NCBI GenBank assembly: GCA_963808735.1
Contig: CAWEHE010000007.1
Location: 17,655-81,654 of the forward strand
Length of the DNA stretch: 64,000 nucleotides
Direction: 5' to 3'
Source of the DNA: an uncultured Thermoleophilia bacterium
Lineage (GTDB): Bacteria > Actinomycetota > Thermoleophilia > UBA2241
The notes beneath the pieces are model-generated. The model was not told the DNA's origin. It was given only the letters and a program-made list of their open reading frames with translations, and ran no database searches. The stretch's first letter is position 1; every line of letters starts with the position of its first letter. A program made the position numbers and the translations under genes. Of this stretch, positions 5,111-29,959 are shown piece after piece.

Positions 5111-6149
5111 ATGAAGACGATCGACCTGCGCAGCGACACCGTCACGCGGCCGTCACCCGCGATGCGCGCGGCGATGCTCGAGGCGGAGGTCGGGGACGAC
5201 GTGCTCGGCGACGACCCCACGGTCGCCGCCCTGCAGGACTTCGCCGCGGACCTCCTGGGCAAGGAGGCCGCGCTCTACTTCCCGTCCGGCACCATGTGCA
5301 ACCAGGCGGCCGTGCGCGCGCTCACGCGGCGCGGCGACGAGGCCTTTCTCCACGCCCAGGCGCACATCGTGTTCTACGAGCAGGGCGCGGCGTCGGCGCT
5401 CAGCCAGGTGCAGCTGCGCGTGTTCGACTCCCCGGACGGCACGCTCGACCTCGAGAAGATGGAGGAGTACGTCCACACCGACGCCGACGTGCACTGGGCG
5501 CCCACGCGGCTCGTGTGCCTCGAGCAGACGCACAATCACTGCGGCGGCGTGGTGCTGCCGATGGAGCACATCCTGGCCGTGCGCGACTTCTGCGACGGGC
5601 ACGGCCTGAAGATGCACCTCGACGGCGCGCGGCTGTTCAACGCCGTGGCGGCCACCGGCGTGAGCGCCGCAGAGTACGCGGCGCCCTTCGACACCGTCAG
5701 CATCTGCCTGTCGAAGGGCCTCGGCGCGCCCGTCGGCTCGGTACTCGCCATGGACGCCGCCACGCTGCCGGCGGCGGCCCGCGCCCGCAAGGTCCTCGGC
5801 GGCGGCATGCGCCAGGCCGGCATCATCGCCGCCGGCGGGCTCTACGCCCTCGAGCACAACGTCGAGCGGCTCGCCGACGACCACCGCCGGGCGCGGCGAC
5901 TGGCGGAGGCGCTCGCCGCGCTGCCCGGGGCTGGCCGTCGACCTCGAGACGGTGCAGACGAACATGGTGTTCGCCGGCACGCGCGGGACGGGGATGCCTG
6001 CGGCCGAGTTGGTGGAGCGCCTCGCCGCCGAAGGCGTGCTCTGCCTCGACGAGGCGCCGTGGTCGATCCGCTTCGTCACGCACCTCGACGTGGACGACGA
6101 CGGCCTCGAGACCGCGATCGAGGGCGTGGCGAGGGCGCTCGGCGCCTGA
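5111..6149 (+). pseudogene. ltaE: Low-specificity L-threonine aldolase, interrupted by +1 frameshift near 5927-5930
   Basis: MKTIDLRSDTVTRPS... is diagnostic of LtaE. Frame breaks after ...LAEALAALPG at a GGGG run; C-terminus LAVDLETVQTNMVFAG...EGVARALGA continues in another frame (ORF 5952..6149). Confidence 0.7.
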
Positions 6150-13422: not shown

Positions 13423-14826
<1,404 letters not shown>

Positions 14827-14924
14827 GCCACCTTCTGGGTAAGTACGACGCAGCACAAGCTTGAGTATCAGTTGAGCGCATCCCGCCGGGTCACAAGCCC
14901 GGGGGGCTGAAAGGAGCGGCGAGC

Positions 14925-15266
14925 ATGAAGAAGATCGAGTGCTACATCCAGCCGTACAACCTCGACACCGTGGCCGAGGCCCTGGCGGTCGAGGGCGTGG
15001 TCGGTATGTCGGTCGCCGAGGTCAAGGGCTTCGGCGTCCAGAAGGGGTTCACGCGCGGCGAGGACGTCAAGGTACACGAGTACCGCTTCCACCCCAAGAT
15101 GAAGGTCGAGATGGTCGTGCTCGAGAAGGACGTCGAGCGCATCGTGGCCGCCATCACGGAGTCCCTCAAGAGCAACCAGATCGGCGAGGGCAAGATCTTC
15201 GTGCTCCCGATCGACGACGCCGTGCGCACGCGCACCGGCCAGCGCGGACGCGACGCCATCACGTGA
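14925..15266 (+). CDS. P-II family nitrogen-regulatory-like protein (non-canonical T-loop)
   Basis: MKKIECYIQPYNLD...VKGFGVQKGF...IGEGKIFVLPIDDAVRTRTG matches P-II fold. T-loop reads RGEDV instead of RGAEY (no Tyr51). Confidence 0.7.
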   Translation: MKKIECYIQPYNLDTVAEALAVEGVVGMSVAEVKGFGVQKGFTRGEDVKVHEYRFHPKMKVEMVVLEKDVERIVAAITESLKSNQIGEGKIFVLPIDDAVRTRTGQRGRDAIT

Positions 15267-16500: not shown

Positions 16501-18158
16501 GTGAGAAGCGACGAGATCAAGCGTGGTCTGGCCCGTGCGCCTCACCGCTCGCTGCTGCGTGCGCTCGGCGTGAGCGACGCGGAGATGGACCGGCCGTTCA
16601 TCGGCGTCGCCAACGCCTTCAGCGAGGTCGTCCCGGGCCACGCGCACCTGCGGACCATCGTCGAAGGCGTCAAGGCCGGCGTGCGCTCGGCCGGCGGCGT
16701 GCCCATGGAGTTCGGCGTGATGGGCATCTGCGACGGGCTCGCCATGAACCACCTCGGCATGAACTACTCGCTGCCCAGCCGCGAGCTCATCGCCGACACC
16801 GTCGAGTCCATGACCATCGCCCACGCCTTCGACGCGCTCGTGCTCGTGCCGTGCTGCGACAAGATCGTGCCCGGCATGCTCATGGCCGCGATGCGGCTGA
16901 ACGTGCCGGCGATCATGGTCGGCGGCGGGGCGATGCTCGCCGGCCACCTGGGCGGGCGCACCATCGACCTGAACAGCGTCTTCGAGGCCGTCGGCCAGCA
17001 CCAGGCCGGCAAGCTCGACGACGAGGGCCTCAAGGCCATCGAGTGCAGCGCCTGCCCCACCTGCGGCTCGTGCTCCGGCATGTTCACCGCCAACTCGATG
17101 AACTGCCTCGCCGAGGTCATCGGCATGGCGCTGCCCGGCAACGGCACGATCCCCGCCGTCTACAGCGAGCGCGTGCGCTTCGCCAAGGACAGCGGCGAGA
17201 AGGTCATGGAGGTGCTCGCCGCCGACCTCAAGCCCCGGGACATCCTGACCGACGCCGCGGTCGGCAACGCCCTCGCCGCCGACGCCAGCCTCGGCTGCAG
17301 CACCAACACCGTGCTCCACCTCACCGCCATCGCCACCGAGGCGGGGCTCGACTTCGACCTGCGGCGCATCAACGAGGTGGCAGCCAACGTGCCGCACATC
17401 TGCAAGATCGCCCCCGCCGGCACGCATCACATGGAGGACCTCTACCATGCCGGCGGCATCCAGGCCGTGATGAAGCAGCTGATCGCCGCGGGTCTCATGG
17501 ACGGCTCCGCGCTCAGCGTCGCCGGCGGCACCGTGGGCGAGGCCGTGGCCGGCGCCCGCGTCGTCGACGACGACGTCATCCGGCCCCTAGATCGCGCCTA
17601 CCACGCCACCGGCGGCCTCGCGGTGCTCTTCGGCAACCTCGCCCCGCTCGGCGCCGTGGTCAAGGAGGGCGCCGTCGCCGACGAGATGCTGCGGCACACC
17701 GGGCCCGCGCGCGTCTTCGAGTGCGAGAAGGACGCGGTGGCGGCCATCTCGACCGGCGACATCGCCACCGGCTCGGTGCTCATCATCCGCGGCGAAGGCC
17801 CCAGGGGCGCGCCCGGCATGCCCGAGATGCTCAGCGCCACGTCGATGCTGGCCGGTCAGGGCCGGGACAAGGATGTGGCGCTCATCACCGACGGCCGCTT
17901 CAGCGGCGCGACGCGCGGCGCGGCCATCGGGCACGTCGCGCCGGAGGCCTACGCCGGCGGTCCCATCGGCATCGTCCACGACGGCGACACGATCAGCATC
18001 GACATCCCCGCGCGCACGCTCACGCTCGACCTCCCGGAGGAGGAGATCGCGCGGCGTGCGGCGGCGCAGCCGCCCATCGCGCCGCGCGACGGCGTAACCG
18101 GGTACCTGGCCCGTTACGTCAGACTCGTCTCCGGCGCGGAGAAGGGAGCAGTGCTGCA

Positions 18159-18162
<4 letters not shown>
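16501..18162 (+). CDS. ilvD: Dihydroxy-acid dehydratase
   Basis: IlvD/EDD family: CDKIVPGMLMAA, [2Fe-2S] Cys motif CPTCGSCSGMFTANSM, SGATRGAAIGHV. Confidence 0.9.
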
Positions 18163-19882
<1,720 letters not shown>

Positions 19883-19886
<4 letters not shown>

Positions 19887-20362
19887 AGCACACCCTCTCC
19901 ATCGTCGTCGAGAACAAGCCCGGCGTGCTCACGCGGGTCGCCGGGCTCTTCGCCCGCCGCGGCTTCAACATCGAGAGCCTGGCGGTCGGGCTCAGCGAAG
20001 ACCCGCGGCTCTCCCGCATCACCATCGTGATCGACGGCGACGAGCACCCGGTCGACCAGGTCACGAAGCAGCTGCACAAGCTCATCAACGTGCTCAAGAT
20101 CCGCGACCTCGAGGCCGGCAACGCCGTGTCGGCCGAACTGCTCCTCGTGCGCGTCGCCGGCGAGGGTGACAAGCGCACCGAAGCGCTGCAGATCGCCGAG
20201 ATCTTCAAGGCCAAGATCGTCGACGTCGACCGCCGCGCGCTCACGCTGCGCGTCGTCGGCACCAACGACAAGCTCGAGGCGCTCCTCGAGCTGCTCCAGC
20301 CCCTCGGTGTGCTCGAGGTGGTGCGCACCGGCACGATCGCCATGGGGCGCGGCCGGGGCTGA
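19883..20362 (+). CDS. ilvN: Acetolactate synthase small (regulatory) subunit
   Basis: ACT domain [33 protein letters not shown]. ATG overlaps ilvB stop. Confidence 0.9.
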
Positions 20363-20391
20363 GGCCCCGCGTCCGCACTGAAGACGCCGCG

Positions 20392-20436
20392 AGGGGCGGG
20401 TCCGGCTGTGCCGGACCCGCCCCTCGGCGTTTCTGC
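20392..20436. terminator. Bidirectional terminator hairpin between ilvN and convergent Kelch-repeat gene
   Basis: 16-bp perfect stem GAGGGGCGGGTCCGGC/GCCGGACCCGCCCCTC followed by GGCGTTTCTGC. Confidence 0.55.
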
Positions 20437-20481
20437 TGCCCGCCGCCGGAACCCCCGGCCGCAGGCGCCGTCAGCGTCGAG

Positions 20482-21691
20482 CTACCAGGGCCAGAGACGC
20501 GGCGTGGCGCGCCAGACGTCGTCGTCGACGAGCGACGGATCGGGGTTCACGAACGAGATCTCACGGTCGCCGCCGAACGTGTAGATCGACTCGCGCAGCC
20601 CGAAGAGGCCGGTCCTGACCATGAGCGAGTCGAAGTCGTACTTGACGTCCGCGGCGCTGGACGCGTTCCACGGGCTGCCCGGGAGCCGGGTCCAGTTCTT
20701 GCCGTCGCGGCTCGACCACTGGTCGGTCGGATGGCCGGGGAGGAACGGGTTGGTGGGTCCGGGCGGCTGCGTGGGATCCGCGAGCGACGGCCAGCCGAAG
20801 CCGCCGAACACGACGATGGACCCGTAGAGCACCTGGGCCTGATGTCCGGGGCGGGGGCTCCAGGCCGCGGACGGCGTCACCAGCTCCCACGCGGCGCCGT
20901 TGCGCGAGCGCCACACGTCGTTGAAGTAGGGGCACTGCAGGCCGGCCGGGCCCACCGTGCAGAGGAAGCCGTCCTCGCCGCCGAGGAGGTACAGGTAGCC
21001 GTCCTTCTTGACCACGGCCGCTCCGGCGCGCGGCGACCAGGCGGCGTCGGCGGTGACCTGCTGCCACGACTTGCCGTCGCGAGGAGCGCCAGACGTCGTT
21101 GAACAGCTCGCGACCGCTGCCGCCGATGGCGACGTCGTCGCCGTTGCTGCCGCCCATCACGTAGATGTAGTCGCCGAACACGATGGCGCTGAGGCCGGCG
21201 CGGCCCTTCCACGGAGCGCTGGGGGTCAGCTGCTTCCAGTTCTTGCCGTCGTACGACTTCCAGACGTCGTTGAAGAACTGGGACGGCTGTCCCGGTCCTG
21301 CAGACAGATTCTGGCCGCCGAGCACGTACATGGCGCCATCCTTGGTCACCGCCTGGAAGTAGCCGCGTGCGGCCCACGGCGCCGTGCCGAGAGCCCGCCA
21401 GGAATGCCCGAGGTCGCTGCTCTTCCACACGTCGTTCCACAGGATGCTGCCGAACGGGTTGAACTGCGTGGGGTCCGGCGTGCGGCCGCCCATCACGTAG
21501 AAGTCGCCGCGCAGCTGGACTGCCTGAAGACCGGCACGGCCGGTCCAGCCCGAGGGATCGTCGCCGTAGACCTTCGTCCACGACAGCGACGGGCTGAAGC
21601 CGCCGCCGGTGGCCCCCGCGATGGGGACGGCGACGAGCAGTGTGAGCAGGGCGAGCGCCGCGACGAGCGGCGCGAGGTGGCTGCGTCTCAT
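20482..21691 (-). pseudogene. Secreted Kelch-repeat (beta-propeller) protein, frameshifted near 21081-21086
   Basis: Signal peptide MRRSHLAPLVAALALLTLLVAVPIAGA. Repeated motifs FNDVWRS/FNDVWKS, YVMGG, YLLGG. The reading frame breaks after GSGRELFNDVWRS and continues in another frame (ORF 20482..21015). Confidence 0.6.
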
Positions 21692-22124
21692 GGTCTCTCT
21701 CTCCTTGGGAGGGTGGTCGCCGGGGCCCCGTTGAGGTACCTCGACGATTTGATCTGCTTCTCTACCCAGAGGTCGCCCTGCTGACCCCCCTCACCGTCGC
21801 CGGTGCGCGCCGTCGGCGTTGTCCGTGCTGACAACGAGCGGTGGCGGCCTGGAGCTTGAGCTGGCGTCTTCCGGACCGGCCGCGGGCCCTCGAGGGGCTT
21901 GTCGTCACGGGCCTGCGGTGTGTCGCGGCCGACCACGGTCGCCTCTCCGTATCGTGGACTCGTGCGCTATCCTGTCCCGGCGAGAGGCGGTTGAGCGCGA
22001 CCTTCGGAGTGCGGAGGCCCGCGTACGCCGAGGAAAGAAGAGGCCGCCCGATGCACGACGCCAGACGCTACGTGGACGTGAGACGCCGTCGGCGCCGCAA
22101 GTGGGCGCCGGCGCCGTGAGCGCG

Positions 22125-23336
22125 ATGCAGGGGAACGGTGGCGAAAGGGAGGCCTTCGACGAGGCCGTCCTGGAAGCTGCCGAGGAGAGCGGTCGCCACG
22201 CCACGAACCTCGAGCTGTTCCTCGATCTCGTCTTCGTCTTCGCGGTCACGCAGGTTGCCGGCATGCTGGCGTCCGACATGAGCGTTTCCGGCTTCGGCAG
22301 GGGGCTCCTCCTGGCGTGGCTGGTGTGGTGGCTGTGGTCGCAGTTCACCTGGCTGGGGACCGCGATCGACCTGGGCGGCCGCTCGGCGACCCAGTTCCTG
22401 GTGCTGGCCACGGTGCCGCTCACCCTGCTCATGGCGGTCGCCCTGCCCGGCGCCTACGGAGCGTCAGGGCTCGAATTCGCCGGCGCGTATCTCGCCGTGA
22501 ACCTTTGGGCGCTGGCGATCCAGGGCTGGGGCCTGTGGCGCGAACCCGCGACCCGGTCAGCCTGGCTCCGCTACGCGCCGCTCGCGGCGCTGGCGCCGTT
22601 GGTTCTGTTTGCCGGCGCGTTCCTGCCAGGAGGCGCGCGTTTCGGCGTGTGGTGCGCGGTCGCGGCGTTCAGCGTCGCCAGCGCCGTGGCCGGCGGCAGA
22701 GGCCAGGAGGGGAAGATCGTCTGGACGGTCGATCCCGGGCATTTCACCGAACGGCACGCACTCTTCGTCATCATCTCTCTCGGTGAGATCCTGGTCGCCG
22801 TGGGCGCCTCCGCCGCCGGGGTACGCCTCACCCCGGCGGTCGGTGTCGGCCTGCTGGGCGCCGTCGCCGTCGCCTGCGTGTTCTGGTGGACCTACTTCGC
22901 CTTCGTGCCCGAGGCGGTAGAGCGGGCGTTGCGGCTCGCCAAGCCCTTTGACCGCGGACGCGTCGCCCGCGACCGCTTCACGTTCGGTCACTTCCCGATC
23001 GTCTTCGGCCTGGTCCTCTACGCCGTGGTCGCCAAGCACGTCGTCGCGCACCCGGCGGACCCCCCGGCCGGCGGCGACCTCGTAGTACTGACCGGCGCCG
23101 TGGCTTTCTTTGTCGGCGGCCTTCTGGGCTTGCAGTGGCAAGCGATGCATCGCCTGGCGCCGGAGCGCCTCGCGGCCATCGCCGCGGTAGCGGCGCTGTG
23201 CTGGGGCGCTGGGCCGCAGGTCCCAGGAGCGGCGCTGGTCGCCGTGGTCGCCGTCATCGTCGCGATCATGCAGGTGATCACGTTGCGCCGCTACGATCGG
23301 CTCGTCGCCGAGCGGACGCGGCGCGAGGACGGCTGA
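22125..23336 (+). CDS. Low-temperature-requirement A (LtrA) family membrane protein
   Basis: NLELFLDLVFVFAVTQ motif and ~10 predicted TM helices. Confidence 0.7.
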   Translation: MQGNGGEREAFDEAVLEAAEESGRHATNLELFLDLVFVFAVTQVAGMLASDMSVSGFGRGLLLAWLVWWLWSQFTWLGTAIDLGGRSATQFLVLATVPLTLLMAVALPGAYGASGLEFAGAYLAVNLWALAIQGWGLWREPATRSAWLRYAPLAALAPLVLFAGAFLPGGARFGVWCAVAAFSVASAVAGGRGQEGKIVWTVDPGHFTERHALFVIISLGEILVAVGASAAGVRLTPAVGVGLLGAVAVACVFWWTYFAFVPEAVERALRLAKPFDRGRVARDRFTFGHFPIVFGLVLYAVVAKHVVAHPADPPAGGDLVVLTGAVAFFVGGLLGLQWQAMHRLAPERLAAIAAVAALCWGAGPQVPGAALVAVVAVIVAIMQVITLRRYDRLVAERTRREDG

Positions 23337-23467
23337 GAAGGCCTGCCGGCACTCGCCGCTCCTCGTCTCGCGACGACGGTTGGGTCCGGAGCCTGCGCGG
23401 GCACGTCATGCGAAAGACGGCCGGCGGAGCCGCCCCACGCGGGGCGGCGGATCGTGAGGAGGTTGTG

Positions 23468-23845
23468 ATGATCGACGAGGCCAGGATCCGCGACTGGCTG
23501 ATGGCGTACCGGCACGCCTGGGCCGCCGACGACCCCGCCGAGGTCGCGGCACTGTTCAGCGAGGACGTGCGCTACTTCACCGCGCCGTATAGGGCGCCGC
23601 TCGAGGGCATCGAGGCGGTGACCGCCTACTGGATCGGCGAGGACGAGGGCGGGATCTCGTGGTCGTTTGAGTATCAGGTCCTGGCGCAGGAGGGCGATCT
23701 CTTCATCGTCCGAGCGGTGACCACCTATCCTGAGGGCGGGACTGATGACCACGACCCCGCGCAGTTCCACAACCTCTGGCTGGTCACGCTGGGTTCCGAC
23801 GGACGCGCGAGCGAGTTCGTCGAGTACTTCATGCTCGTGGAGTGA
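23468..23845 (+). CDS. SnoaL-like / NTF2-like domain protein
   Basis: MIDEARIRDWLMAYRHAWAADDPAEVAALFSEDVRYF is the typical N-terminus of SnoaL-like polyketide cyclase-fold proteins. Confidence 0.55.
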   Translation: MIDEARIRDWLMAYRHAWAADDPAEVAALFSEDVRYFTAPYRAPLEGIEAVTAYWIGEDEGGISWSFEYQVLAQEGDLFIVRAVTTYPEGGTDDHDPAQFHNLWLVTLGSDGRASEFVEYFMLVE

Positions 23846-23935
23846 GCCGGTTGAGGAGGCGGCGCGCAGGCGGGCAGACGGGTCGCGTAGACTCACCGGC
23901 GGTCCATACACGCGCGAGCGCACGAGGTGAGCACG

Positions 23936-25181
<1,246 letters not shown>

Positions 25182-25217
25182 TGCCGGCGCCGCGGAGAGC
25201 GCACGGAGGGGAGACGG

Positions 25218-26346
25218 GTGGACCCTGACGCGGGCAGGGATATCGTCGCACGCCGGCTGCGCGCGCAGCGCCTGACCGGCGTGCCCTGCGCGACGCCCGA
25301 GGAGGCCGTCGGCCTCCTCGGGGCGGTCCAGGCCCAGGACTACGGGCCGGCCAAGTGGTCCCTGGGCACGCGCGTGGCCGGCGCTACGGACGAGCAGGTG
25401 GAGCGCGCCCTCAGCGCCGGCGCGATCCTGCGCACGCACGTGCTGCGGCCGACGTGGCACTTCGTGCTGCCGGCCGACATCCGCTGGCTGCTGACCGCGA
25501 CCGCGCCGCGCGTCCGCGCACGGGACGCGCGCCGGTACGCCCAGCTCGGGCTGGACGATGAGACGCTGCGGCGGAGCGCCGGCGCCCTCTTCGCGGCGCT
25601 GCGCGGCGGGAACCGGCTGACCCGCGCCGAGGCCGCCGGCGTGCTCAGCGCCGCCGGCGTCGGCGTCGAGGGGCAGCGGCTGCCGTACCTCCTCATGGCC
25701 GCCGAGCTCGACGCGCTCGTCTGCAGCGGTCCGCGGATCGGCAAGCAGCACACGTACATGCTGCTCGAGGAGCGAGCGCCCGGCGCGCGCGACCTGCCTC
25801 GGGACCAGGCGCTGGCGGAACTGGCGCGGCGCTTCGTCACCGGTCACGGGCCTGCGACGGCCAGGGATTTCGCCGTCTGGGCGACGCTGACCATGGCCGA
25901 GGCGCGCGCCGCTCTCCAGGCGGCGGGGCCGGATCTCGAGGCCGAGGACCGGGGCGGTCTGCGCCTCTGGGCGCCCGCGGCGGGGCCGGGGAGCGGGGGA
26001 GAGCATCCCTCAGCGCCGCGGGGGCCTTCGCGTCCACCTCGTCCAGGGCTACGACGAGATCGTCATGGGCTACACCGAGACCAAGCCGTTGCTGGCCCGG
26101 CCCGGCTCGCCCTGGGAGCCGGCGACGCCGCCGGTCTTCCGGCTCGTCGTGCTGCTGGACGGCGGCGTTGCCGGCTACTGGCGCCCGCGCCCGAAGAGGG
26201 ATCGCGTGTTCGTCGAGGTCGCCCTCATGGAGGCGTTCAGCGGGGCCGCCATGGCGGCGCTCGAGATGGAGGCCGCGCGCTACGGCGCGTTCCTGGGTCT
26301 GCCGGCGGAGGTCCGGATGGTCGAGCCGCCGCACGGGCCGGGGTGA
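25218..26346 (+). pseudogene. Winged-helix DNA glycosylase AlkZ/YcaQ-like protein, frameshifted near 25990-26015
   Basis: RTHVLRPTWHFV motif is typical of YcaQ/AlkZ (HTH_42). C-terminus continues in another frame (ORF 26065..26346, VHLVQGYDEIVMGY...). Break lies in G5 runs. Confidence 0.55.
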
Positions 26347-26367
26347 CCCTGGCCCGGAGCCGGCAGC

Positions 26368-26697
26368 CTAGGCGAAGACGAGATTGACGAGGAGCACGTA
26401 GACGGCGGTGCCGCCGAGGATGCTGACCACCGCGTTGCGCCTCGCGAGGTGCAGGATCACCGTGGCCGCGATGGCCAGCGCCTCGGGCAGCCCGTGCGGC
26501 GTCTCGCCGAGCGAGACGCCGCGCAGGGTGTACACCACGAGGATGACCATGATGCCGGCCGGCATGTGGCGGCTCAGGTAAGCGACCAGCGCTGAGTCCC
26601 GCAGCGGCCGCAGGATCGCGAACGGCACGGCGCGCAGGGCGAAGGTGACGGCGAACATCGTCAGCGACGCGGCGAGGAGATAGGCGTTGTCAGGCAT
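26368..26697 (-). CDS. azlD: Branched-chain amino acid transport protein AzlD
   Basis: 109-aa hydrophobic protein typical of AzlD; 4-nt overlap with upstream azlC. Confidence 0.65.
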   Translation of the reverse strand: MPDNAYLLAASLTMFAVTFALRAVPFAILRPLRDSALVAYLSRHMPAGIMVILVVYTLRGVSLGETPHGLPEALAIAATVILHLARRNAVVSILGGTAVYVLLVNLVFA

Positions 26698-27424
26698 CCG
26701 CGACGCCTCTGCCGCGTGGCCCTCGCAGAAGGAACCGGACGACCAGCGCCGCCACGAACAGCCCCATGCCGGTGAAGAGCAGCTGTCCGGGAGCCACGAC
26801 CAGCGCGAGCAGCGCGCAGATGAACGCGAGCACCGGGCTGGGCAGGTCGCGCTCCACGCGAGCCGCGTCCATGGCGAGCACGACGAAGAGCGCCGTGAGT
26901 GTGAACGCCAGACCCACGAGATCCAGCGCCAGCCAGCTCCCCAGGAGCGCGCCGGCGACGCTGCCGGCCACCCAGTACCCCTGGCAGAACGCCTGCAGCC
27001 AGAGCACGCGGGCGCTGCTCAGCGAGACGCCGGGCCGGCCGGCGGTGAGCGCGTAGGCCTCGTCGGTCAGGGCGTACATGCTGTACGTCTTGCCGGCGCG
27101 ACCGCGCACTCTGTCCAGAGGAAAGGACAGGGCGTAGAACACGTGGCGGAAGTTGACGAGGAAGGTGGTCAGGGCGAGCTGCGGAAGCGGCGTGACCGCG
27201 ATCACCAGCCCGACGGCGAGGAACTCCATGGAGCCGGCGTAGACCAGCACCGAGAAGATGAGCGCCCACCACCAGTCCAGTCCCGACTGCACGACCAGGA
27301 GGCCGAACGCGGCGCCCAGCGGGAACATGCCGACGCCGACGGAGATGGTGTCGACGAAGGCGGCGCCGAGGGCCGAGTCGTGCGGGGCGGCCTTGCCTGC
27401 CGCGTCGGAAGATGGTCTGCTCAC
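26694..27424 (-). CDS. azlC: AzlC-family branched-chain amino acid permease
   Basis: Multi-TM protein with AzlC-like motifs (GSMEF, RHVFYALSF). GTG start assumed; the ORF is open further upstream. Confidence 0.65.
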
Positions 27425-27465
27425 GGCGCGATGATACCGGCACGGCGAGGCGGGACGACAACGGC

Positions 27466-27915
27466 ATGAAGGCGACGTACAGACACACGAACATCGTGGC
27501 CGCGGATTGGCGGGCGCTGGCGGCGTTCTACGAGGACGTCTTCGGGTGCACGCCCGTGCCGCCGGTACGCGACCTCTCGGGAGCGTGGCTCGACCTGGGT
27601 ACGGGCGTGCCGGACGCACACCTGACCGGGGTCCACCTGCGGCTGCCCGGCCACGGAGAGGGCGGACCGACGCTCGAGATCTACGGCTACTCCGTCACGA
27701 AGCCGCGGCCGGCCGTGGCTGCGAACCGCGAGGGCATCACCCACATCGCCTTCGAGGTGGACGACGTCGTCGCGGCGACCCGTCTTGTGCTCGAGCACGG
27801 CGGGAGTCTCGTGGGCGACGTGACGTCTGCGGAGGTCCCGGGGGTCGGCCTGCTCACGTTCGTGTACGTCGCCGACCCCGAGGGCAACATCGTCGAACTG
27901 CAGGCGTGGACATGA
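27466..27915 (+). CDS. VOC/glyoxalase-bleomycin-resistance family protein
   Basis: Paired beta-alpha-beta-beta-beta modules (HIAFEVDDV ... DPEGNIVELQ). Confidence 0.6.
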   Translation: MKATYRHTNIVAADWRALAAFYEDVFGCTPVPPVRDLSGAWLDLGTGVPDAHLTGVHLRLPGHGEGGPTLEIYGYSVTKPRPAVAANREGITHIAFEVDDVVAATRLVLEHGGSLVGDVTSAEVPGVGLLTFVYVADPEGNIVELQAWT

Positions 27916-28481
27916 AGCGTCAGCAGGACGCGGCGCGGCTCGTGGTGCTCGTCGTCGCGCCCGCGATCGTCCTGCTTCTCGCCGGAGGCTGTGGCTCAGC
28001 CGGCGACGTCGGCGGCTCCTCGTCGGGCGCCGCCGGAGCGCCAGCGCCCGGAGCCGGGGACGCGGCGCTCGCCAAAGCCTTCGACGACCGTGCCTCCGAC
28101 CTCGAGGTCGAGGGCGCCGGCACAGTCGATCGCCTGCTCCCGGATGACGAGGAGGGCAGCCGGCATCAGCGCTTCATCCTCAGGCTTGCGTCCGGCCAGA
28201 CGCTGCTCGTCGCGCACAACATCGATATCGCCCCGCGGATCGCCGGTCTGCACGCCGGCGACGTGGTCACCTTCCGCGGCGTGTACGAGTGGAACCCGGA
28301 GGGCGGCACGATCCATTGGACGCACCATGACCCATCGAGCGACCACCCGCCGGATGGCTGCTGCACGGCGGCAGGGTCTACGAATGACGCGCCGCGGGCC
28401 GGCCCGGATGGCCGCGGGCCGGCCCCGAACGCTCCTTACGGCATCGGCATCGACGGGTCCCAGTTCGAGAAGCCCTGGTGA
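27912..28481 (+). CDS. DUF3465-family lipoprotein
   Basis: Lipobox LLLAGGC and IHWTHHDP motif. ATG overlaps the VOC stop (ATGA). Confidence 0.55.
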   Translation: MKRQQDAARLVVLVVAPAIVLLLAGGCGSAGDVGGSSSGAAGAPAPGAGDAALAKAFDDRASDLEVEGAGTVDRLLPDDEEGSRHQRFILRLASGQTLLVAHNIDIAPRIAGLHAGDVVTFRGVYEWNPEGGTIHWTHHDPSSDHPPDGCCTAAGSTNDAPRAGPDGRGPAPNAPYGIGIDGSQFEKPW

Positions 28482-28651
28482 TGGACGCCGGGGTTCATGG
28501 TGCCGGAGAACCCGCCCATTTCCTGTGCCATCGCGGCGTGGTGCTGGCCGTACGCCCGGCCGGCCCCGTTGGCCCCGGTGGCGGCGAAGGCGGGGGCGGC
28601 GACCGCCAGGGTCAGCGCCAGGACGGCGACCGCGGTGAAGATGTGTCTCAT
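28436..28651 (-). CDS. Small secreted His/Met-rich protein (71 aa)
   Basis: Clear signal peptide MRHIFTAVAVLALTLAVAAPAFA. Mature part rich in His/Met (HHAAMAQEMGG...MNPGVHHQG...PSMPMP). Overlaps the 3' end of the convergent DUF3465 gene by 46 bp. Confidence 0.4.
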   Translation of the reverse strand: MRHIFTAVAVLALTLAVAAPAFAATGANGAGRAYGQHHAAMAQEMGGFSGTMNPGVHHQGFSNWDPSMPMP

Positions 28652-28858
28652 TGCGACTGCCTTTCATGGATACCCGGGCTTTCGGGGCCGCGGGATAGTG
28701 GACTGACGCAGTCCTCATTCCCCGGGCGCCCTCGCCTCACCCATGGAATGCCGACCGGGGTCGTCCGCGCCTACGTTGCCGGGCGCGGCGCGACTTAGTA
28801 GAGTCCTACGTTCCGAATACCCACGGCCCGACGGGCCGTCCAGAGGAGGAGACACCGC

Positions 28859-29863
<1,005 letters not shown>

Positions 29864-29883: not shown

Positions 29884-29920
29884 CCCGGGGCGGCCGGGGC
29901 GCTGAAGGCGCCCCGGCCGC
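29884..29920. terminator. Bidirectional terminator between ilvC and convergent VOC gene
   Basis: 16-bp perfect stem GGGGCGGCCGGGGCGC/GCGCCCCGGCCGCCCC with loop TGAAG. Confidence 0.55.
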
Positions 29921-29959
29921 CCCGTTCACGTGCTGCCGGCGGACTCGCGATCTGTCCGC

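Follow-up and report, generated by a model that had tools for sequence, protein, structure and literature searches.

What separates ilvN from ilvC, and why are the genes between them so often frameshifted, in a stretch of DNA from an uncultured Thermoleophilia bacterium (64,000 nucleotides of contig CAWEHE010000007.1, hereafter the window)? A first-pass annotation of the window had noted that ilvN normally stands directly before ilvC, and had read the interval between the two as an accessory island that splits the ilvBN-ilvC operon, horizontally acquired and now decaying. The first point is borne out, as the ilvN-ilvC gap is 8,496 bp in the window compared with 19-300 bp in nearly all of the approximately 60 other taxa sampled, namely those recovered with IlvN. 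The interruption of the operon and the variable content of the interval also stand, while the idea of recent foreign DNA does not. We consider it probable that the interval is an old variable gene slot, that its frameshifts are long-read consensus indels and that it contains no accumulated gene decay.

The locus is an interrupted ilvBNC operon. The order and strand of ilvB, ilvN and ilvC are preserved in the window, with ilvB (acetolactate synthase large subunit; 18159-19886, forward strand) as the left core flank, ilvN (small subunit; 19883-20362, forward) as the left boundary of the slot and ilvC (ketol-acid reductoisomerase; 28859-29863, forward) as its right boundary. Upstream, ilvD (16501-18162) lies on the same coding strand as ilvBN. 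ilvB is 82-99% identical to its relatives in a single high-scoring segment pair, and ilvN is 100% identical to that of the related contig L081. The canonical ilvBNC operon of Actinomycetota is represented by Corynebacterium, Streptomyces and Mycobacterium. The window resembles it in the ilvB-ilvN...ilvC order and strand and in the stop-start overlap of ilvB and ilvN, but differs from it in the spacing before ilvC, which is 8.5 kb instead of about 60-200 bp, and in the antisense genes and hairpins that occupy this space.

The genes of the slot encode a secreted Kelch-repeat beta-propeller protein, an LtrA-family membrane protein, a SnoaL_2 / NTF2-like protein, the beta subunit of tryptophan synthase (TrpB), an AlkZ/YcaQ-like DNA glycosylase family protein, the AzlCD pair, a VOC / glyoxalase-fold protein, a DUF3465 lipoprotein and a small secreted His/Met-rich protein. 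Genes were called using a frame plot of the GC content at third codon positions (GC3) together with a codon-model Viterbi scan, families were assigned by Pfam and NCBIfam, and every gene named in the first-pass annotation of the insert was confirmed in this way.

IlvN has its closest relatives in metagenome-assembled genomes (MAGs) of uncultured Thermoleophilia, and we compared the slot across eight contigs, the window and seven relatives referred to as L081, L082, L083, L001, L002, L003 and L004. The slot measures 8.5 kb in the window and from 0.6 to 6.1 kb in the seven related contigs, and its contents are all different across the eight contigs (8/8), while the flanks are conserved. Its largest counterpart, 6.1 kb in L081 (96-97% nucleotide identity to the window), contains Kelch-trpB-alkZ-azlDC-VOC-DUF3465. 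The others hold Kelch-trpB-azlDC-DUF3465-Coa1 (L082), Kelch-azlDC-VOC-DUF3465 (L083), trpB-MBL-LtrA-DUF3465 (L001), SnoaL-trpB-alkZ-DUF3465 (L002) and SnoaL-trpB-alkZ-DagK (L004), and in L003 the slot has only 600 bp and none of the slot genes. Overall, trpB and DUF3465 are each present in six of the eight contigs, Kelch, azlCD and alkZ each in four, and LtrA in two (plus a further contig, L085). The slot of the window brings together almost all of the modules found among its relatives.

Despite this variability, trpB and DUF3465 are near-fixed in the clade and show core-like divergence. TrpB, which scores 534.8 bits against the TIGR00263 equivalog cut-off of 392, is 90-92% identical to its counterparts in L001, L002, L004 and L082, while the flanking proteins IlvC and IlvN are 91-93% and 92-94% identical to those of the relatives, respectively. 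The divergence of TrpB thus equals that of IlvC and IlvN, indicating that trpB has been co-inherited with the flanks. Furthermore, the relatives hold intact copies of every slot gene that is frameshifted in the window. For instance, intact alkZ-like orthologues are found in L002 and L004, and an intact DUF3465 gene adjoins ilvC in L001, L002, L081 and L083, while in L082 the Coa1 gene intervenes between the two. The comparison with close relatives, which the first-pass annotation had proposed as a check, therefore finds that the ilvN-ilvC slot of relatives contains these genes in unbroken form, an outcome that the annotation itself had named as refuting its reading.

The closest contig, L081, shares 95-97.5% identity with the window across 22.8 kb, but is without two internal segments of it, one at 21837-23993 that carries LtrA and SnoaL and one at 28335-28764 that carries the His/Met-rich gene. 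The density of single-nucleotide polymorphisms relative to L081 is about 1-2% at 11.5-21.8 kb and jumps to 3-9% at 24-32.7 kb, with the switch exactly at the LtrA-SnoaL segment, and the synonymous divergence (dS) is mosaic along the compared region. Together, the jump in density and the mosaic dS point to recombination with a breakpoint at the LtrA-SnoaL segment, which we located by comparing positions 21837-24000 of the window with positions 11952-12063 of L081. The trpB frameshift of the window is found just 20 bp after homology with L081 resumes. The same LtrA-SnoaL-trpB arrangement is found in L085, an independent short-read contig that is 96.3% identical. The LtrA gene (22125-23336, forward), assigned by Pfam and NCBIfam, is shared with L001 (87%) and L085 and is not found in L081, and the SnoaL gene (23468-23845, forward) also stands 5′ of trpB in L002, L004 and L085.

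We propose that the ilvN-ilvC junction would be an old, vertically inherited yet flexible slot in this soil Thermoleophilia lineage. Its modules, namely Kelch, LtrA-SnoaL, trpB, alkZ, azlCD-VOC, DUF3465 and the His/Met-rich gene, would have been gained, lost and swapped at the slot, probably via recombination between relatives.

We located the frameshifts by three-frame views and by comparison with relatives, and found a single 1-bp indel in each affected slot gene. The Kelch gene (20482-21691, reverse strand) has one surplus base at 21081, trpB (23936-25181, forward; TIGR00263) a surplus C at 24014 and the alkZ-like gene (25218-26346, forward) a surplus C at 26029, and all three genes had been reported as frameshifted by the first-pass annotation. 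In addition, the DUF3465 gene (27912-28387, forward) has lost one G from a G-run at 28352-28353, which leaves its conserved C-terminus (GWLLHGGRVYE followed by the stop) in a different frame. As sequenced, this open reading frame (ORF) continues as far as 28481, into the His/Met-rich gene that converges on it. A one-base repair, by deletion of the extra base in the first three genes and restoration of the G in the fourth, gives full-length proteins of 402, 414, 375 and 158 amino acids, respectively, each with a full Pfam match. A whole-window codon-model scan recovers all four slot frameshifts and only one more, in ltaE (low-specificity threonine aldolase; 5111-6149), where a G-run at about 5927-5930 has one G too many; once repaired, the protein has 345 amino acids and matches Beta_elim_lyase end to end. 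The reported enrichment of frameshifts in the slot and the single case elsewhere are therefore both upheld, and the slot count has to be raised from three to four because of DUF3465. Programmed frameshifting was rejected as an explanation, since the sites have no slippery heptamers and lie in unrelated contexts.

These lesions are private to the window. None of its four slot indels is present in L081 (0/4), which instead has frameshifts in Kelch and AlkZ at other positions, plus one in the core gene serA (18296-19878). In L082, frameshifts are found in ilvD (13478-15135, spread over three frames) and in an aminotransferase gene (1257-2548), and none in the slot. From these sister long-read contigs we obtain a background of approximately 0.1-0.15 frameshifts per kb for this type of assembly. 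Short-read sequences give a different picture, as the short-read MAG L083 contains 22 full-length genes at the same locus, and the short-read contig L085 reads through the trpB site in frame. The trpB gene is intact in L081 as well. Furthermore, the repaired Kelch protein has a 95%-identical homologue of 402 amino acids that represents a cluster of 64 sequences (at least 90% identity) from many samples, and all of the 15 cluster members listed are 399-402 amino acids long and apparently intact. We found no sequence in the collection identical to the repaired Kelch, TrpB, AlkZ and DUF3465 proteins or to the unaltered LtrA, only relatives at 95-96% identity.

Among the named relatives, those nearest to the window are long-read MAGs of Microflora Danica, which were assembled from Nanopore reads only, using Flye and one round of Medaka, with no short-read polishing (PMC12313526), and the contigs L081, L082 and L084 bear Flye-style names. 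Residual indel errors are a known kind of error in Nanopore-only, Medaka-polished metagenome assemblies, as described in two sources (PMC12313526; PMC9262707). The lesions of the window resemble such errors in being single-base and private and, in two cases, in falling within G-runs. They also resemble them in their setting, as core genes of the sister contigs are hit too while the short-read relatives are intact. The four slot indels and the ltaE indel are thus most likely errors in the consensus of a metagenome assembly made from Nanopore reads only.

Several observations weigh against this interpretation. The slot, which makes up 13% of the window, has four frameshifts in 8.5 kb compared with one in the remaining 55.5 kb, a clustering that uniform random error does not predict (binomial P of about 0.001, a post hoc hand calculation on a region that the cluster itself had singled out). 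Of the five indels, only those in DUF3465 and ltaE are changes in the length of a homopolymer (G-run); the three others are C/G insertions in non-homopolymer contexts, in which they differ from the Nanopore error type. The local clustering likewise departs from that type, and something further, for instance strain heterogeneity or a dip in coverage, would be needed to account for it. The weak points of our explanation are the step by which polishing errors would concentrate at a strain-variable slot through mixed reads or reduced coverage and the small share of homopolymer changes among the indels, and the Nanopore platform of the window's own contig is itself something that we infer. Finally, comparison of the window with L081 gives a higher ratio of nonsynonymous to synonymous substitution rates (dN/dS) for AlkZ (0.3-0.5) and for AzlC, VOC and DUF3465 (0.27-0.34), values that are based on small counts. 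The Kelch and AlkZ insertions may have a T[C]GCG motif in common, and two cases establish no systematic error motif.

Such observations would fit genuine recent pseudogenisation, in which the slot genes are dispensable and carry four fresh one-base lesions that predate any build-up of substitutions. This explanation accounts for the clustering of lesions in an accessory interval, for the independent lesions of Kelch and AlkZ in L081, for the three indels outside the homopolymer error class and for the somewhat raised dN/dS of AlkZ, VOC, AzlC and DUF3465. It does not sit well with the rest of the selection data, as Kelch and TrpB are under strong purifying selection, with dN/dS values of 0.09 and 0.02, respectively, that are as low as those of the core flanks. 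Also at odds with it are the complete lack of lesions common to two contigs that are 96-97% identical, the presence of exactly one lesion in each gene, the like lesions in the core genes serA, ilvD and the aminotransferase gene of sister long-read contigs, and the intact frames of the short-read relatives. Furthermore, the frameshifts of L082 all lie beyond the slot, and therefore slot enrichment is no general property. We consider recent pseudogenisation unlikely, while leaving it some real chance. With private indels, one per gene, low dN/dS for Kelch and TrpB and intact relatives, the description of the interval as decaying is not supported, and if the frameshifts are not consensus errors, they are at most very recent segregating lesions.

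A particular form of this idea holds that the frameshifts are real and that two strains at 96-97% identity have independently inactivated Kelch and AlkZ at different positions, which we regard as distinctly improbable. If true, it would imply that genes in a recombination hotspot lose their function repeatedly and in parallel, for example through selection against the secreted Kelch protein, and both Kelch and AlkZ would have been inactivated although purifying selection held until very recently.

Another explanation concerns the function of the slot and not its lesions. Under it, the slot would be an extension of the ilv operon with a coherent function: trpB, azlCD and the genes around them would have been drawn in so that amino-acid metabolism or export is co-regulated, and the frameshifts would be incidental. 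The presence of trpB in the slot of six of the eight contigs and of azlCD, a predicted branched-chain amino-acid exporter, in four of them is in line with this, as is the slot of L002, where every gene points the same way as ilvBN and ilvC. However, no gene is universal, since L083 is without trpB and L003 without all of them, and a DNA glycosylase, a VOC protein, an NTF2-like protein and a lipoprotein are unconnected to ilv chemistry. Moreover, the window has Kelch, azlCD and the His/Met-rich gene in antisense orientation, set apart by hairpins.

By an inverted-repeat search we found, in the space where ilvN and the Kelch gene converge (20390-20426), a hairpin with a perfect 17-bp stem and a 3-nucleotide loop. 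This hairpin is also conserved in L081 and is likely a bidirectional terminator. A second hairpin with an 11-bp stem lies at 28396-28425, between the convergent DUF3465 and His/Met-rich genes, and a third, again with a perfect 17-bp stem, at 29886-29924, 3′ of ilvC and outside the slot. A scan for consensus terminators, which demands a T-run, returned nothing at either of the 17-bp hairpin positions, and the hairpin at 20390-20426 was missed because it has no T-run. The first-pass annotation had placed bidirectional terminator hairpins on both sides of the insert, at 20392 and 29884. Both hairpins exist, but the second does not flank the insert: it sits after ilvC, about 1 kb beyond the interval, and therefore terminates ilvC and marks no island boundary. 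Given the antisense genes and hairpins between ilvN and ilvC, co-transcription across the slot is unlikely. With ilvBN cut off from ilvC by convergent genes and hairpins, ilvC would need its own promoter. We find the extended operon very doubtful.

The interval also has little in common with foreign DNA. The window has a GC content of about 70%, and the slot is indistinguishable from the core in the composition check that the first-pass annotation had suggested, both in GC (0.712 compared with 0.697) and in tetranucleotide distance, for which it ranks 14th of 56 sliding 8.5-kb windows. The compositional outliers of the window sit outside the slot, at 39-50 kb and 49-59 kb. They include a stretch of lower GC (0.65-0.68), where genes at about 43-47 kb encode large membrane proteins and proteins that resemble GtrA and glycosyltransferases, judged by their translations alone, and a very high-GC stretch (0.74-0.78) that contains hisG-hisD at about 52-54 kb and has poor codon signal. 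We found no integrase, transposase or other mobility genes among the slot proteins and spare ORFs using Pfam, NCBIfam and PADLOC, and no tRNA or transfer-messenger RNA in the whole window using a tRNA scan; an Rfam scan of the whole window gave no match. No att-like repeats were detected, and the direct repeats that we found correspond to repeats within Kelch and to short GC-rich matches that arise by chance. PADLOC found no defence genes among the slot proteins, and the slot is therefore not a defence island. Together with the same-slot genes in relatives and the core-like divergence of TrpB, this flank-like composition contradicts a recent horizontal acquisition of foreign DNA. That a recent foreign island entered the ilvN-ilvC junction in one piece, as the usual adjacency of these genes, the strong hairpin at the left edge and the miscellaneous functions carried might suggest, can hardly be right in view of the typical composition, the lack of an integrase, transposase, tRNA or direct repeat, the presence of subsets of the genes at core-like divergence in the same slot of relatives and a difference from L081 that consists of two separate internal segments (21837-23993 and 28335-28764) and no single unit.

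The remaining features of the slot are as follows. Between the divergent Kelch and LtrA genes is a 433-bp gap (21692-22124) with no recognisable gene and a weak coding-like signal only, which presumably holds the divergent promoters of both. The LtrA-SnoaL segment that L081 lacks begins within this gap, at 21837. The exporter pair is encoded on the reverse strand by azlD (26368-26697) and azlC (26690-27424), and is followed by the VOC gene (27466-27915, forward), which is also present in L081, L083 and L084. The His/Met-rich protein (28436-28651, reverse) is a signal-peptide protein of 71 amino acids, and its His/Met content suggests that it may bind metal. In L084 (102-4315), a homologue of it (at least 90% identity) is flanked on one side by an extracytoplasmic-function (ECF) sigma factor gene and a gene for a 437-amino-acid protein of unknown family, and on the other by VOC-azlCD. 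From this different context we conclude that the module also travels elsewhere.

Outside the slot, IlvD is 98% identical to that of L081 but only 61-77% identical to those of L001-L004 and L082, whose IlvB, IlvN and IlvC are 82-94% identical to those of the window, and the ilvD allele may have been replaced in the window's sub-lineage. Further upstream, the P-II protein GlnB (14925-15266) differs between the window and L081 at eight amino acids that are clustered at residues 50-53 and 74-79 (dN/dS of 0.64). The neighbours of GlnB are 99-100% identical to those in L081, and its differences look like a localised patch rather than uniform drift.

Chromosomal integration hotspots, or flexible genomic islets between conserved core genes, are a general concept of comparative genomics. 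The slot is like them in that its flanks, ilvD-ilvB-ilvN and ilvC-serA, hold a different gene set in each relative, and in its mosaic divergence with a recombination breakpoint at LtrA-SnoaL, but is unlike them in having no visible mobile-element machinery and in that trpB and DUF3465 are old and nearly fixed in the clade. With classical tRNA-associated genomic or pathogenicity islands it shares the interruption of a conserved locus by miscellaneous accessory genes, and it differs from them in the lack of a tRNA, an integrase, a direct repeat and a compositional deviation. Among the classical island features that we tested, the slot shows at most a patchy distribution, which holds for individual modules such as Kelch, azlCD, LtrA and alkZ and not for the near-fixed trpB and DUF3465, and it has none of the tested features of a pseudogene cluster. 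An ilvN-ilvC slot in Thermoleophilia, usually with a canonical trpB, appears to be undescribed, and there is nothing new in its kind.

Collectively, these results call for caution in interpreting clusters of frameshifts in the accessory regions of long-read-only MAGs, as they can mimic the decay of an island. When the window is set beside close relatives and short-read contigs, the slot genes prove to be conserved, under selection and intact elsewhere. The slot is of local interest and unsurprising in kind, and it is useful for annotation and pangenome studies of this Thermoleophilia group. In this uncultured clade of soil Thermoleophilia, a tight ilvN-ilvC junction has, on our reading, become a stable slot for gene exchange.

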